Virus record (IMG/VR): IMGVR_UViG_3300020048_000026
Coordinates: 64,001 to 128,000 of that record
Direction: 5' to 3' (one strand)
Source: a virus
DNA: 64,000 nt
Under the pieces are notes generated by a model that was not told where the DNA came from, ran no database searches, and was given only the letters and a program-made list of their open reading frames with translations. Below, piece after piece: positions 293 to 2,656 of this stretch. A program made the translations under genes and the position numbers. Every line of letters begins with the position of its first letter. The stretch's first letter is position 1.

Positions 293-366
293 TAGGTTTG
301 GTGGGACTCGAACCCACACAGCATTGATTAAGAGTCAATTTCAATATCCAGTTATGATACAAACCC
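293..366 (-). tRNA. tRNA-Lys(CTT), atypical D arm
   Basis: Acceptor stem GGGTTTG/CAAACCT; anticodon arm ATTGA-CTCTTAA-TCAAT; T arm GTGGG-TTCGAGT-CCCAC. Confidence 0.8.
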
Positions 367-370
367 AATT

Positions 371-456
371 TGGCACGAAAAGTAGGATTCGAACCCACGA
401 ACTCTTACGAGATTTGTTTTGGAGACAAACGCCTTTGACCGCTCGGCAATTTTCGT
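371..456 (-). tRNA. tRNA with CCA (Trp) anticodon and a long variable arm; 3' CCA encoded
   Basis: Acceptor ACGAAAA/TTTTCGT-G-CCA; anticodon arm TTTGT-CTCCAAA-ACAAA; variable region TCTCGTAAGAGTTC; T loop TTCGAAT. Confidence 0.8.
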
Positions 457-503
457 ATTTAAAGATGTGCCTGTGTTAATTACATCACACATCTTAATAT
501 TTT

Positions 504-740
504 TTAGTTAAGTTGAATTAACTTATCATTATCTATTGCTTTTCTTATCCAACGCATAAGTTCAATACTTCTCATTTCTGGTAAAAAATATACATTTGCA
601 AATTCTACATGATCAGTAGTGTCCATTTCTAATTGATATAATGTACCTTCAACTTGAATTATGTAATATACAACTCCGTTACATACATATGACATTTTAG
701 CCATTGTTCCTTTTACGATTTCTTTTAAAGTGTGTTTCAT
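504..740 (-). CDS. Hypothetical protein embedded in the tRNA operon
   Basis: 78-aa ATG ORF, co-oriented with the tRNAs, occupies the gap between tRNA genes. Confidence 0.7.
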   Translation of the reverse strand: MKHTLKEIVKGTMAKMSYVCNGVVYYIIQVEGTLYQLEMDTTDHVEFANVYFLPEMRSIELMRWIRKAIDNDKLIQLN

Positions 741-870
741 TTTATTTATTATTTTTATTGTTTCTAAATAAGATAGTTTTTTTCAAAATAAACTGGACAT
801 TTTTCATTTTGAAAAGTTTATGTGAGTAAGAAAAGGATAACTATCACCTATTGATGAAAATTATACTAAG

Positions 871-959
871 TGGCGGAAAAAGAGGGGCTCGAACCCTCGC
901 ACCGATAACGATCTATACGCTTTCCAAGCGTACCCCTTCACCAACTTGGGTATTTTTCC
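871..959 (-). tRNA. tRNA-Ser(GGA)
   Basis: Anticodon arm TACGC-TTGGAAA-GCGTA; long variable arm; G73; CCA encoded. Confidence 0.9.
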
Positions 960-964
960 ATTTG

Positions 965-1037
965 TGACCCGAAACGGATTTGAACCGCTGACGCAAAGAT
1001 CTTCAATCTTTCGCTCTACCAACTGAGCTACCAGGTC
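965..1037 (-). tRNA. tRNA-Phe(GAA), canonical
   Basis: D arm TAGCTCAGTTGGTAGAGC; anticodon arm AAAGA-TTGAAGA-TCTTT; T loop TTCAAAT. Confidence 0.9.
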
Positions 1038-1063
1038 AAAATTGTGGAATAAATCCACATTTG

Positions 1064-1137
1064 TGGTACCGACAGGCGTTGACCCTGTATTTTTGGCTTT
1101 TCAGACCAACACTCTTACACACTTGAGTTACGGCACC
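1064..1137 (-). tRNA. tRNA-Phe(GAA), non-canonical D and T loops
   Basis: Acceptor GGTGCCG/CGGTACC; anticodon arm TTGGT-CTGAAAA-GCCAA; T loop GTCAACG; D loop lacks GG. Confidence 0.65.
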
Positions 1138-1143
1138 TTGTTG

Positions 1144-1228
1144 CGGGGAAGATTGGATTCGAACCAAAGAAGTTCTTTGCTGTAAATAATCTTTTCAGAA
1201 TATTCTCTCACCGTGAGAGATTTTCCCC
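1144..1228 (-). ncRNA. tRNA-mimic RNA carrying a TACAGCAAA motif
   Basis: Acceptor-like GGGGAA/TTCCCC; hairpin TCTCTCAC-G-GTGAGAGA; AT-rich stem replaces the anticodon arm; TACAGCAAA; T arm TTGG-TTCGAAT-CCAA. Confidence 0.55.
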
Positions 1229-1241
1229 ATTTTATTTGTTG

Positions 1242-1316
1242 GGTGCTATGTCGGATTTGAACCGACGACCACTTGAACCACAATCAAGCATTCTAACCAA
1301 CTGAACTAATAGCACC
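1242..1316 (-). tRNA. tRNA-His(GTG), canonical, G-1:C73
   Basis: Anticodon arm CTTGA-TTGTGGT-TCAAG; G-1 encoded. Confidence 0.9.
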
Positions 1317-1321
1317 ATTTG

Positions 1322-1409
1322 GGTGTTAGACGGGACTCGAACCCGCAAGGAGTTTAACCTCTCCAGAGTCACAATCTGGCCCGATAACCTATTTACGGAC
1401 TACTAACAC
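1322..1409 (-). tRNA. tRNA-His(GTG) with a long variable arm and no encoded G-1
   Basis: Acceptor GTGTTAG/CTAACAC; anticodon arm CCAGA-TTGTGAC-TCTGG; variable region AGAGGTTAAACTCCTT; T loop TTCGAGT. Confidence 0.8.
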
Positions 1410-1411
1410 AG

Positions 1412-1502
1412 CGGAAGTTGAGGGGCTCGAACCCTCGCGACGTTTTTCAGACGACCTATCAGTTTAGCAAACTGACCCCTTCACCAACTTGGGTAAACTT
1501 CC
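1412..1502 (-). tRNA. tRNA-Ser(GCT)
   Basis: Anticodon arm TCAGT-TTGCTAA-ACTGA; long variable arm; G73. Confidence 0.9.
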
Positions 1503-1508
1503 ATTTTG

Positions 1509-1595
1509 CGGAGACAGACGGAGTTGAACCATCACATCAATTCTCATTGATTTCACCGTTTTCGAGGCGGCTAACTACACCAAATAGGTGTCTCC
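1509..1595 (-). tRNA. tRNA-Ser(CGA), atypical D arm
   Basis: Acceptor GGAGACA/TGTCTCC-G; anticodon loop CTCGAAA; long variable arm. Confidence 0.75.
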
Positions 1596-1601
1596 AAAAT
1601 C

Positions 1602-1680
1602 AGAATACTTTTTTGGATACGAACCAAGTGAACAAATTTCAAGTTTGTTTTTTTACCTTTGATTTTGCTGTAAGTATTCT
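1602..1680 (-). ncRNA. tRNA-mimic RNA carrying a TACAGCAAA motif and a TGA anticodon-like loop
   Basis: Terminal stem AGAATACTT/AAGTATTCT followed by ACAGCAAA; arm ACAAA-CTTGAAA-TTTGT; T arm TTGG-TTCGTAT-CCAA. Confidence 0.55.
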
Positions 1681-1681
1681 T

Positions 1682-1771
1682 TGGCGGAAGATAAGGGAAT
1701 CGAACCCTTACACCGGCTCTCACCGATATCACTGTTTTCAAGGCAGCTTACCTCACGCAATGGGATCTTCC
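1682..1771 (-). tRNA. tRNA-Ser(TGA), atypical D arm
   Basis: Acceptor GGAAGAT/ATCTTCC-G-CCA; anticodon loop CTTGAAA; long variable arm. Confidence 0.8.
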
Positions 1772-1778
1772 AAAGATG

Positions 1779-1860
1779 CACGCCCAAAAGGATTCGAACC
1801 TTTAACCACGCTTACGCATTACCGGGTTGGAACCGGCTGGTCACTCCAATGAGTGGACGC
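1779..1860 (-). tRNA. tRNA with CCA (Trp) anticodon, long variable arm and short D arm
   Basis: Anticodon arm GCCGG-TTCCAAC-CCGGT; variable region AATGCGTAAGCGTGGT; T loop TTCGAAT; G73. Confidence 0.7.
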
Positions 1861-1876
1861 ATTTATTAATTTTTTG

Positions 1877-1960
1877 TGACCCCTATGGGACTCGAACCCA
1901 TGACTCCCTGATTAAAAGTCAGGTACTCTTCGCTTTCGCTACCAACTGAGTTAAGAGGTC
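1877..1960 (-). tRNA. tRNA-Lys(TTT) with a hairpin insertion in the D loop
   Basis: Anticodon arm CCTGA-CTTTTAA-TCAGG; D loop contains an extra GC-GAAA-GC. Confidence 0.85.
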
Positions 1961-1965
1961 ATTAG

Positions 1966-2052
1966 TACGCCCGAAGGGAATCGAACCCTTGTACAACTTT
2001 CGTATCCCAGATTAAAAGTCTGGTGCCTCACGCCTATCTCGGCCACGGACGC
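1966..2052 (-). tRNA. tRNA-Lys(TTT) with a long variable arm
   Basis: Anticodon arm CCAGA-CTTTTAA-TCTGG; variable region GATACGAAAGTTGTAC; T loop TTCGATT. Confidence 0.8.
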
Positions 2053-2144
2053 ATTCTAATTCTCCAATATGTCAAATAACTTTTTTTACTCTTTTACTCT
2101 TTTACTTTTTTACTTTTTTAGTCCAAAATTCTAATTTTTAAAAC

Positions 2145-2179
2145 AAAAAAATCCGAACTTTTTTATGGTTCGGATTTTT
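2145..2179 (-). terminator. Intrinsic terminator (attenuator) upstream of the tRNA operon
   Basis: Minus strand AAAAATCCGAAC-CATAAAAAA-GTTCGGATTTTTTT-GTTTT: stem-loop running into a U tract. Confidence 0.8.
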
Positions 2180-2204
2180 ATATCTGTGTTTAAATGTATT
2201 TTTG

Positions 2205-2294
2205 TTACATCAAATAAGGCATAATAGTCTCCGAACCTTGGCTATGTGACCAAAATTTAAAGGATTTACTACTATGTTTCTTAACTAATGCCAT
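2205..2294 (-). CDS. Attenuator leader peptide (29 aa) MALVKKHSSKSFKFWSHSQGSETIMPYLM
   Basis: Manual translation. Codons 5-18 are all K/H/S/F/W. Contains GGTTCGGA (2230-2237), complementary to the terminator 5' arm TCCGAACC (2167-2174). Confidence 0.8.
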   Translation of the reverse strand: MALVKKHSSKSFKFWSHSQGSETIMPYLM

Positions 2295-2656
2295 GATTTC
2301 TATTTTATTTGAGTTGTTTATGTTTTTTATTTGTTTTCTATATATAATTAAAATTATATCGTTTTTTTCTATTTTTGTTTATTTTATTTTCTTCTTTTTT
2401 GAATTTTTCCCTTAAAACTATACCAGTTAAGCATAAAAGCCATGTATAACAGCTTAAACTTCAAGTATATGTATGCTAATCTTGTCATAGTTCCGATTTG
2501 ATTGTACAAAATTACATCTTTTTTCTGAATAAAAAAATTATTTTCAAATTATTTTCAAAAATATCTTTTTTGCTACCTTTAACCTTAGTTAATTAAGCCG
2601 AACGTATAGGTCTTGTGACCGATTTTTAGAGGTTCTGCGACTCAAAAAAGTTATTT

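Follow-up and report, generated by a model that had tools for sequence, protein, structure and literature searches.

An element on the minus strand of IMG/VR virus record IMGVR_UViG_3300020048_000026 very probably acts as a leader-peptide attenuator, in which ribosomes govern the transcription of a phage tRNA operon. It lies in the window analysed here, a stretch of 64,000 nucleotides (nt) that comprises bases 64001-128000 of a 154,853-bp phage genome, a single contig with 26.6% G+C. A short open reading frame (ORF) with a dense run of Lys, His, Ser, Phe and Trp codons (K/H/S/F/W) is found about 190 nt 5' of a tRNA array that is restricted to the same five identities, and the phage probably makes these tRNAs only when the codons in question are decoded slowly. 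All sequence-level features that characterize a leader-peptide attenuator are present, and the anatomy of the element, its statistical improbability, the alternative folds, the conservation of the pairing and the covariation of leaders with tRNA sets have been computed.

Results

A leader ORF that mirrors the downstream tRNA genes

The first-pass annotation of this DNA, made from the letters alone, had described a 29-codon ORF at 2294-2205 with 14 consecutive K/H/S/F/W codons, followed by tRNAs of only these identities. The coordinates were rechecked and are correct, and the codon run is unique in the genome. The main parts of the element are as follows, in window coordinates:

2294-2205, minus strand: leader ORF, 29 codons and a stop codon, MALVKKHSSKSFKFWSHSQGSETIMPYLM
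2282-2241, minus strand: putative sensing run, codons 5-18, 14 consecutive Lys/His/Ser/Phe/Trp codons
2349-2370, minus strand: promoter-like motif AGAAAAAAACGATATAATTTTA, a 7/8 match to the Bacteroidota -7 box (TAATTTTA), by consensus only
2052-292, minus strand: tRNA array as a whole, 13-15 tRNA genes, identities Lys/His/Ser/Phe/Trp only

When all six frames of the 154,853 bp are considered, the run of 14 is the longest and the runner-up has a length of 10. The number of K/H/S/F/W runs drops about 3.6-fold with each extra codon, and about 0.002 runs of at least 14 codons are expected genome-wide. This outlier is situated upstream of the only array in the genome with K/H/S/F/W identities. The tRNA genes were called with ARAGORN in default and relaxed mode and with Rfam cmscan, and the anticodon loops were inspected by eye. 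The 13 genes listed in the first-pass annotation agree with the reading of the anticodon loops, and one or two odd tRNA-like elements are present in addition, one of them called as a third Phe(GAA) by relaxed ARAGORN; no tRNA of an identity other than Lys, His, Ser, Phe or Trp was found in the array by ARAGORN, Rfam or loop reading.

The promoter-like motif AGAAAAAAACGATATAATTTTA is located about 55 nt 5' of the leader ATG, and a sigma-70-type scan also marks 2381-2353 ahead of the leader. The motif family AGAAAAAA..TGTAATTTTG is also found at window positions 2890 and 2526, 5' of the two preceding small genes; as a repeated motif, TTTTTTTATTCAGAAAAAAnATGTAATTTTGTA with a Bacteroidota-type -7 box, it occurs on the minus strand at about 2890, 2526 and 2370, the leader copy being degenerate. 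In two relatives of the locus (L003 and L004; related loci carry L numbers throughout) cgTAtcTTTG boxes occupy the equivalent position. The start context of the leader ORF, aaatagaaatcATG, is common to the window and the huge-phage genome LR756501, and the ORF is presumably translated in the host. An origin of the leader from a degraded tRNA, considered in view of its span of about 76 nt, a GGTTCG motif and pairing ends, was rejected, as Rfam gave no tRNA match there at E <= 1.

Terminator and mutually exclusive pairings

The first-pass annotation had also noted an 8-nt complementarity between the ORF (2237-2230) and the 5' arm (2174-2167) of a U-tailed terminator in front of the first tRNA gene. 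Both features were verified: GGTTCGGA inside the ORF is exactly complementary to TCCGAACC of the terminator arm, and the terminator consists of an 11-bp stem (2178-2168 with 2158-2148), a 9-nt loop and a U7 tract, and is found 30 nt 3' of the leader stop codon. Four regions can be distinguished:

2249-2291, minus strand: region 1, 5' half of the leader hairpin in the minimum free energy (MFE) and centroid folds; its core AAUUUUGGU (2257-2249) includes the Trp codon
2230-2242, minus strand: region 2, GCCAAGGUUCGGA; its partner is region 1 (via 2242-2234) or region 3 (via GGUUCGGA, 2237-2230)
2167-2178, minus strand: region 3, terminator 5' arm (AAAUCCGAACC), used by antiterminator and terminator alike
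2145-2158, minus strand: region 4, terminator 3' arm (GUUCGGAUUU), leading into the U7 tract (2151-2145)

Such an arrangement is rare in this genome. Among its 157 terminator-like hairpins, five have an upstream complement of at least 8 nt within 150 nt, and for two of these five it falls within a short ORF that begins with ATG and stops ahead of the hairpin. The first of the two is the leader described here; the second corresponds to the last part of a 63-codon ORF and probably represents a gene end.

The RNA of the leader ORF folds into one long imperfect hairpin that extends from codon 2 to the stop codon (z = -4.65; 0 of 200 shuffled sequences fold as well), and the whole leader RNA has a z-score of -5.54. 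The inner helix of this hairpin pairs AAUUUUGGU (2257-2249) with GCCAAGGUU (2242-2234), and because it overlaps GGUUCGGA, the 1:2 and 2:3 pairings are mutually exclusive.

The first-pass annotation had proposed folding with and without a ribosome footprint as a check. For this purpose the nascent RNA was cut just ahead of region 4, and a ribosome was represented by a mask from -15 to +13 about the A-site codon. Without a ribosome, the leader hairpin sequesters region 2 and leaves region 3 available for terminator formation. When the A site is at codons 5-15, the 8-bp helix GGUUCGGA:UCCGAACC, that is the 2:3 antiterminator, is formed, and when it is at codons 17-21, region 2 is masked and region 3 is again free. 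Codon 16 is borderline in this model, and codons 17-18 and the TCG at codon 21 would be non-sensing under the footprint used. The dependence of the fold on the ribosome position was likewise found in L003, L004, L004b, L019, L025 and L002. For the window, L003, L004 and L025 the ribosome-free nascent fold has region 2 locked up by the leader hairpin and region 3 unpaired; for L019 and L002 it contains the 2:3 helix. A hairpin around the TGG codon equivalent to that of the window is present in L003 and L004.

The element has no counterpart among the leader families in Rfam. The best leader-family match at E <= 1 was Thr_leader (RF00506) at 2142-2197, with 26.8 bits versus a gathering threshold of 55, and covers the terminator part only, while Phe_leader (RF01859) and the His, Trp and Leu leader families gave no match at E <= 1 in the cmscan.

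Homologous leaders in other phage lineages

Relatives were collected with the histidyl-tRNA synthetase (HisRS)-like protein encoded downstream of the array as bait, which yielded at first 25 and then 78 IMG/VR loci together with 80 metagenome loci; two regions from published huge-phage genomes were also included. Homologous K/H/S/F/W leaders were found in three further lineages, each upstream of Phe, His, Trp, Lys and Ser tRNAs. The leaders and the 2:3 pairings are:

Window: pairing GGTTCGGA:TCCGAACC
L003/L107: leader MTVFKKHTFKFKWHFSHNGFG...; pairing in L003 GGATTCGG:CCGAATCt
L004/L005/L112: leader MSYVSKHKHFSKFHFWFSTKSSG...; pairing in L004 GAGTTCGGG:CCTGAACTC, with one G-U pair
L185, identical with LR756501 (published, 735 kb): leader MLQTSKHSKHFSSSSKWFTTFGVE...; pairing TTCGGGGTT:AACCCCGAA

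The TTCGG:CCGAA core of the 2:3 helix is retained in all four lineages, and the helix is extended by differing complementary flanks, so that the compensatory changes predicted in the first-pass annotation are indeed seen in L003, L004 and LR756501. They are described pair by pair and not by a column-wise covariation score, because MAFFT, applied to six leaders, misaligns region 2 of L003/L107, and the helix registers differ.

The leaders of L003 and L107 are the same through residue 26, apart from one synonymous TTC/TTT change, and are wholly divergent beyond. This pattern, a conserved sensing part and a divergent tail, is expected of a regulatory leader and not of a functional peptide. The K/H/S/F/W module with its leader is a single cassette in the 155-kb phage and is conserved up to the 735-kb genome.

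Leader composition follows the tRNA set

If leaders of this type sense the tRNAs of their own operon, their codon content should covary with the downstream anticodon set, as the first-pass annotation had predicted. A scan based on structure only was run over the operon strand of 180 related loci. It required a stable hairpin with a T tract, an upstream complement of the 5' arm of at least 7 nt, and the location of this complement within an ATG ORF of 10-65 codons that ends ahead of the hairpin. The scan yielded 42 distinct candidate leaders in all loci, many of which are unlike that of the window in composition, each mirroring its own array:

L019: leader MTFMSYSHSCSYSHSSKGGF; downstream His x2, Tyr x2, Ser x5, Cys
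L025: leader ..SSHSYCYSSSYHS..; downstream Ser x4, Cys, Tyr x2, His x2
L084: leader ..SSSHSYCYSSH..; downstream Ser x4, Cys, His
L028, L004b, L186: leader ..SSSSSRSS..; downstream Arg and Ser
L050: leader ..ITRIIRIRRRS..; downstream Ile, Arg x3
L030: leader ..IYIGYIAEGGYEAG.. (E/Y/G); downstream Glu x3, Tyr x2, Gly x3
L038: leader ..PITIVEDIIAVDEPSV.. (P/I/T/V/E/D/A); downstream Pro, Glu, Asp, Ala, Ile, Val, Ile, Thr
L038: leader ..QQSSQSQQ..; downstream Gln x2
L004: leader ..IKNIKKSKKRIK.. (K); downstream Lys x4
L012: leader ..KHNTVARKQWRNRRH.. (K/H/N/R/Q/W); downstream Trp, His x2, Arg x4, Asn, Gln, Cys, Lys
L110: leader ..HMNPVHHP..; downstream His, Pro
L139: leader ..PVHPYPYHPAH..; downstream His, Tyr, Pro x2

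The phage of locus L004 carries three leader cassettes. The match between leader and array was quantified as the share of the residues before region 2 that are found in the leader's own downstream tRNA set, for the 27 candidates with at least one ARAGORN tRNA within 4 kb. The mean match was 0.418; shuffled pairings gave 0.204 +/- 0.027, and the observed value was not reached in any of the 20,000 shuffles. For 15 of the 27 candidates the match was also significant against the background of the locus (binomial p < 0.01). In a test independent of structure, the best 12-codon window for the amino-acid set of the array in the whole locus coincided with the leader in L003, L004 (twice), L019 and L025. 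Taken together, matched leaders of at least eight compositions were found in IMG/VR loci, metagenome loci and the two published huge-phage genomes (LR756501 and LR745206).

Several ORFs passed the structural scan with an unconvincing tRNA match and were not counted, namely those of L026 (MYQNLYIEMCNENIINDDTSQLTGI), L096, L099 and L168, and two ORFs in L018 and L021 that encode about 55 residues. These two (L018 47-226 and L021 770-937) are homologous, have about 55 codons, are each accompanied by a terminator and a complement, and precede giant arrays of at least 40 tRNAs. The L018 peptide includes all 20 amino acids, and these ORFs could represent a general sensor or merely a small gene. In L024 (1-200) a frame that is open from the edge of the locus, HSHLSL...LQSSQLSSQPLPYP..., is followed by a terminator ahead of Gln, Tyr, His, Leu, Pro and Ser tRNAs. 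This frame, probably a further class of leader (H/S/L/Q/P/Y), was also left uncounted, its start being off the fetched DNA.

The tRNA array and the HisRS-like gene

The array and the features that follow the terminator, all on the minus strand, are:

2144-2053: A-rich spacer of 92 nt with AGTAAAA-type repeats, from the terminator to the first tRNA
2052-1965: Lys(TTT)
1960-1876: Lys(TTT), anticodon loop CTTTTAA by eye; ARAGORN is unstable here and gives Arg(cct) or Gly(acc)
1856-1778: Trp(CCA)
1771-1686: Ser(TGA)
1680-1600: tRNA-like element, called by neither default ARAGORN nor Rfam
1596-1509: Ser(CGA)
1502-1411: Ser(GCT)
1409-1322: His(GTG)
1315-1241: His(GTG)
1227-1143: Phe(GAA), odd element, called by relaxed ARAGORN and not by default ARAGORN or Rfam
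1137-1064: Phe(GAA)
1037-964: Phe(GAA)
959-871: Ser(GGA)
807-742 and 740-504: two small ORFs inside the array
456-371: Trp(CCA)
366-292: Lys(CTT)
261-1, continuing to genome position 63632: HisRS-like gene, 209 amino acids, 5' part in the window, last protein gene of the putative operon

Default ARAGORN calls nine tRNA genes in the array and cmscan 12, some of them weak, and relaxed ARAGORN adds the third Phe(GAA). Several of the tRNAs (2052-1965, 1960-1876, 1856-1778, 1409-1322 and 456-371) have unusual bodies. Long variable arms of the Ser/Leu type are present on Lys(TTT), both copies of Trp(CCA) and His(GTG), one Lys(TTT) has a D-loop insertion of about 11 nt, and G-1 is not encoded in the long-arm His tRNA. 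Next to these non-canonical forms, His, Phe and Lys(CTT) are also present as canonical copies. The spacer is built of tandem AGTAAAA/AGAGTAAAA units and is absent from the cassettes of the relatives.

The HisRS-like protein matches the Pfam family tRNA-synt_His (6e-25), and its best PDB matches are HisRS proteins (1e-25) of about 420 amino acids, compared with its own 209. It corresponds to a minimal class II core that lacks the anticodon-binding domain. A further tRNA-Ser(TGA) follows the gene. Its conservation extends to over 200 contigs from phages and metagenomes, among them huge phages with genomes of 400-735 kb; the metagenome scan gave 229 relatives. A leader with His codons usually precedes the gene. 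Several phages have, directly ahead of the HisRS-like gene, a conserved leader of 14-15 codons (MKxLHTYKIxIDWG) that is followed by a terminator and has a complement of its own (L028 3055-3102, L029 3940-3984, L031/L032 4851-4895 and L186 8673-8717), and the HHH leaders of L002 and L140 are related to this type. The HisRS-like gene of the 516-kb phage represented by L019 (6001-6597) contains one in-frame stop codon in the standard code, which suggests that this phage uses stop-codon recoding.

Genomic setting and probable host

Near the tRNA operon, on the same strand, lie genes for SmpB (Pfam, 2e-55), for a Tpt1/KptA-family RNA 2'-phosphotransferase (1.5e-42) and for a protein that resembles exoribonucleases (window 4517-4960; genome 60608-61150 and 62032-62553), a group that suggests a translation-rescue and tRNA-repair cluster. 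The terminase-like protein of the phage is closest to those of the huge phages LR756501-4 and LR745206 (34-44% identity), followed by Tenacibaculum and Flavobacterium phages. These affinities, together with the TAnnTTTG-type boxes 5' of the leaders, suggest that the host belongs to the Bacteroidota. With the whole region as query, blastn against INPHARED gave matches to tRNA and HisRS-like sequences only and no close relative.

Two tandem genes for tRNAs with a CUA anticodon (amber suppressors) are situated at 56944-57096 of the genome on the minus strand, 6.9-7.1 kb ahead of the window start, and raised the idea of genome-wide TAG recoding. It was rejected: with TAG read as sense, coverage by long frames rose merely from 0.78 to 0.79, apart from an increase in the 50-60 kb bin of the genome (0.65 to 0.77). 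The leader analysis with the standard code therefore holds.

Discussion

Mechanism

The following sequence of events is proposed. Transcription would begin about 55 nt 5' of the 29-codon leader ORF. If the leader is not translated, the long 1:2 hairpin would form, region 3 would remain free and pair with region 4, and the polymerase would stop at the U7 tract before the tRNA genes. A fast ribosome would cover region 2 while regions 3 and 4 emerge, and the terminator would form again. If charged Lys, His, Ser, Phe or Trp tRNA is scarce, a ribosome would stall with its A site at about codons 5-15, region 1 would be melted and GGUUCGGA set free, which would pair with UCCGAACC and block the terminator, so that the polymerase would enter the 13-15 tRNA genes, the HisRS-like gene and the last tRNA-Ser. 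The new tRNAs would ease the stall and thereby close a self-limiting loop. The mechanism presupposes a host in which translation is coupled to transcription, which is presumably the case here; leader-peptide attenuation has been judged likely in Flavobacterium/Flavobacteria (PMC9723704).

This interpretation, a ribosome-mediated attenuator with codons matched to the operon tRNAs, is favoured by folding, conservation and covariation, but it should be noted that several points count against it or narrow it. The MFE structure of the full transcript always contains the terminator, so that a kinetic switch has to be assumed, as for the trp operon; in classical attenuators the terminator is likewise part of the minimum-energy fold and the choice is kinetic. 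A ribosome at the leader stop codon leaves region 2 uncovered, and thus termination after fast translation depends on timing and on refolding of 1:2. Not every relative has a leader ahead of the HisRS-like gene (L106 is an example), and an additional constitutive promoter may be present in the 92-nt spacer of the window.

Furthermore, a design at the level of isoacceptors is unsupported. It had been claimed that all nine anticodon classes of the array have a cognate codon in the leader. When synonymous codons were resampled from the codon usage of each locus, 72 of 82 anticodon species were covered compared with 68.4 +/- 2.5 expected (P = 0.09), and in the window the part of the leader before region 2 covers eight of the nine classes, with 7.1 expected (P = 0.32). 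Thus, the correspondence does not go beyond chance for individual anticodons, while the match at the amino-acid level stands, and leader design is demonstrated for amino-acid identities and not for individual anticodons. The TCG codon, which had been counted among the sensors, lies inside region 2 and is unlikely to be one, because a ribosome stalled there would mask the antiterminator instead of freeing it. Individual cases can nevertheless be striking, as in L012, where four distinct Arg codons are found ahead of four Arg isoacceptors.

Alternative explanations

A first alternative accepts that the attenuator is genuine and assumes that its selected target is the minimal HisRS-like gene, in analogy to pheM-pheST and with a His leader, the tRNAs being co-transcribed passengers. 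Leaders directly in front of the HisRS-like gene nearly always contain His codons, for example those of L002 and L140 (HHH), L094 (four His), L110, L113 and L139 and the 14-residue MKxLHTYKI.. leaders of L028, L029, L031 and L186, and the leader of the window has two. However, the presence of the HisRS-like gene at all loci is a sampling bias, because the gene served as bait. Leaders remote from it lack His codons and match their own tRNAs instead (L004b and L028, S/R; L050, I/R; L030, E/Y/G; L038), 12 of the 14 codons of the window run are not His codons, and the terminator is separated from the HisRS-like gene by about 1,780 nt of tRNA genes (2052-292). It is therefore improbable that the tRNAs are mere passengers.

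It is highly improbable that the ORF is an ordinary small gene with its own terminator, that the array is driven by a promoter in the 92-nt spacer, and that the codon match and the 8-nt complement are coincidental. The spacer does contain a 7/8 match to the Bacteroidota -7 box (GAATTTTG), but such a match is expected by chance because the DNA is AT-rich; exact TAnnTTTG occurs 324 times in the genome. Coincidence would have to account for a codon run of which about 0.002 are expected, for a complement of at least 8 nt that is found at 3% of the terminators, and for the agreement of leaders with tRNA sets across phages, which no shuffle reproduced. In addition, the C-terminal tail of the peptide is unconserved and the sensing part is conserved. 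A further argument against a separate promoter comes from the relatives. The distance from the start of the T tract to the first tRNA is 10-29 nt in L003, L028, L030, L012, L038 and L185 (13 nt in L003 and 29 nt in L185), and in L004 the ATG of the HisRS-like gene follows 27 nt beyond the T-tract start. These short distances leave no room for a separate promoter, and in L003, L185 and L004 downstream expression must cross the terminator.

Least probable is a translation-independent RNA switch whose ligand would be a protein, a small molecule or, in the manner of a T-box, a tRNA, the ORF being incidental: the leader RNA is strongly structured, and the alternative 2:3 pairing exists with or without translation, but no T-box or riboswitch match was found at E <= 1 (cmscan, window 1-3000), the feature conserved across lineages and leader classes is the amino-acid composition of an ATG-started frame and not the RNA sequence, and the sensing codons are placed where a stalled ribosome would free region 2.

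Relation to known systems

Known cases of leader-peptide attenuation concern amino-acid biosynthesis and one synthetase operon. Among the enterobacterial amino-acid operons, the ilvGMEDA leader (Ile, Leu and Val) and the thr leader (Thr and Ile) are multivalent, and further examples are trpL, hisL, pheL and leuL. Like the multivalent leaders of the ilv and thr type, the phage element comprises a short, here presumably translated ORF in which regulatory codons for several amino acids are clustered, four regions with exclusive 1:2, 2:3 and 3:4 pairings, a terminator before the first structural gene and, in the in silico model, the selection of the antiterminator by a stalled ribosome. It differs in that it is encoded by a phage, senses five identities together, belongs to no Rfam family and controls tRNAs and a synthetase-like gene instead of biosynthetic enzymes. 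Its output would act on the sensed quantity itself, the decoding capacity of the tRNA pool, and not on amino-acid supply. The theory of such attenuators is treated in PMC1183508.

The closest parallel regarding the target is the E. coli leader pheM, which controls the phenylalanyl-tRNA synthetase operon pheST by attenuation at cognate codons. In both cases a gene of the translation apparatus is under the control of a leader, here the HisRS-like gene in the operon with His codons in the leader; pheM, in contrast, senses one amino acid and controls the synthetase alone. T-box riboswitches also report the state of specific tRNAs by transcription attenuation and have translation-related targets, but they bind uncharged tRNA directly, without translation, and respond to one tRNA each. 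According to textbook knowledge, tRNA genes are controlled at the promoter level by growth rate and the stringent response. Genes for tRNAs are not known to be under leader-peptide attenuation, and full-text literature searches found no published account of it. What is new here is the controlled product, the number of identities sensed and the phage setting.

What might deplete the sensed tRNAs

Charged tRNAs could become limiting through host defence nucleases, phage-induced turnover or plain demand. The trigger suggested in the first-pass annotation, the cleavage of host tRNAs by anticodon nucleases of the PrrC or PARIS type, is conjecture. Its appeal lies in the remodelled tRNAs and in the nearby genes for SmpB and Tpt1/KptA; a simple homeostasis of supply and demand fits equally well. 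Phage tRNA arrays have been proposed to be substitutes for host tRNAs that are hit by anticodon nucleases (eLife 2023, PMC10264068). Those arrays are likewise phage-encoded tRNA sets with altered features, and the remodelled bodies of several tRNAs found here fit the substitution idea; the article is about the tRNAs themselves and, as far as title and abstract show, describes no conditional, codon-sensing control of transcription.

A tentative and rather doubtful extension would regard the attenuator as the induction switch of a phage-private decoding module that is conserved from 155-kb to 735-kb phages. The loss or inactivation of host Lys, His, Ser, Phe or Trp tRNAs, for example by anticodon nucleases, would stall the leader ribosome and induce remodelled tRNAs that the nucleases do not recognise, including the long-arm Lys, Trp and His tRNAs, together with a minimal HisRS that charges a tRNA-His without G-1.

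Implications

In the proposed attenuator, the logic of attenuation would be applied to the decoding machinery itself: a translated probe would gauge the speed at which certain codons are read and set the transcription of the matching tRNAs. The element is widespread, and thus the prediction can be tested on many sequences. If it is true, the way in which large phages adjust the dosage of their tRNAs would be explained, and compact, modular sensors of multi-codon decoding speed would become available for synthetic biology. Each leader would then list the host tRNAs that become limiting during infection and would provide a direct read-out of them. Confirmation would also bear on the old question why phages carry tRNAs, be it for codon compensation or for counter-defence.

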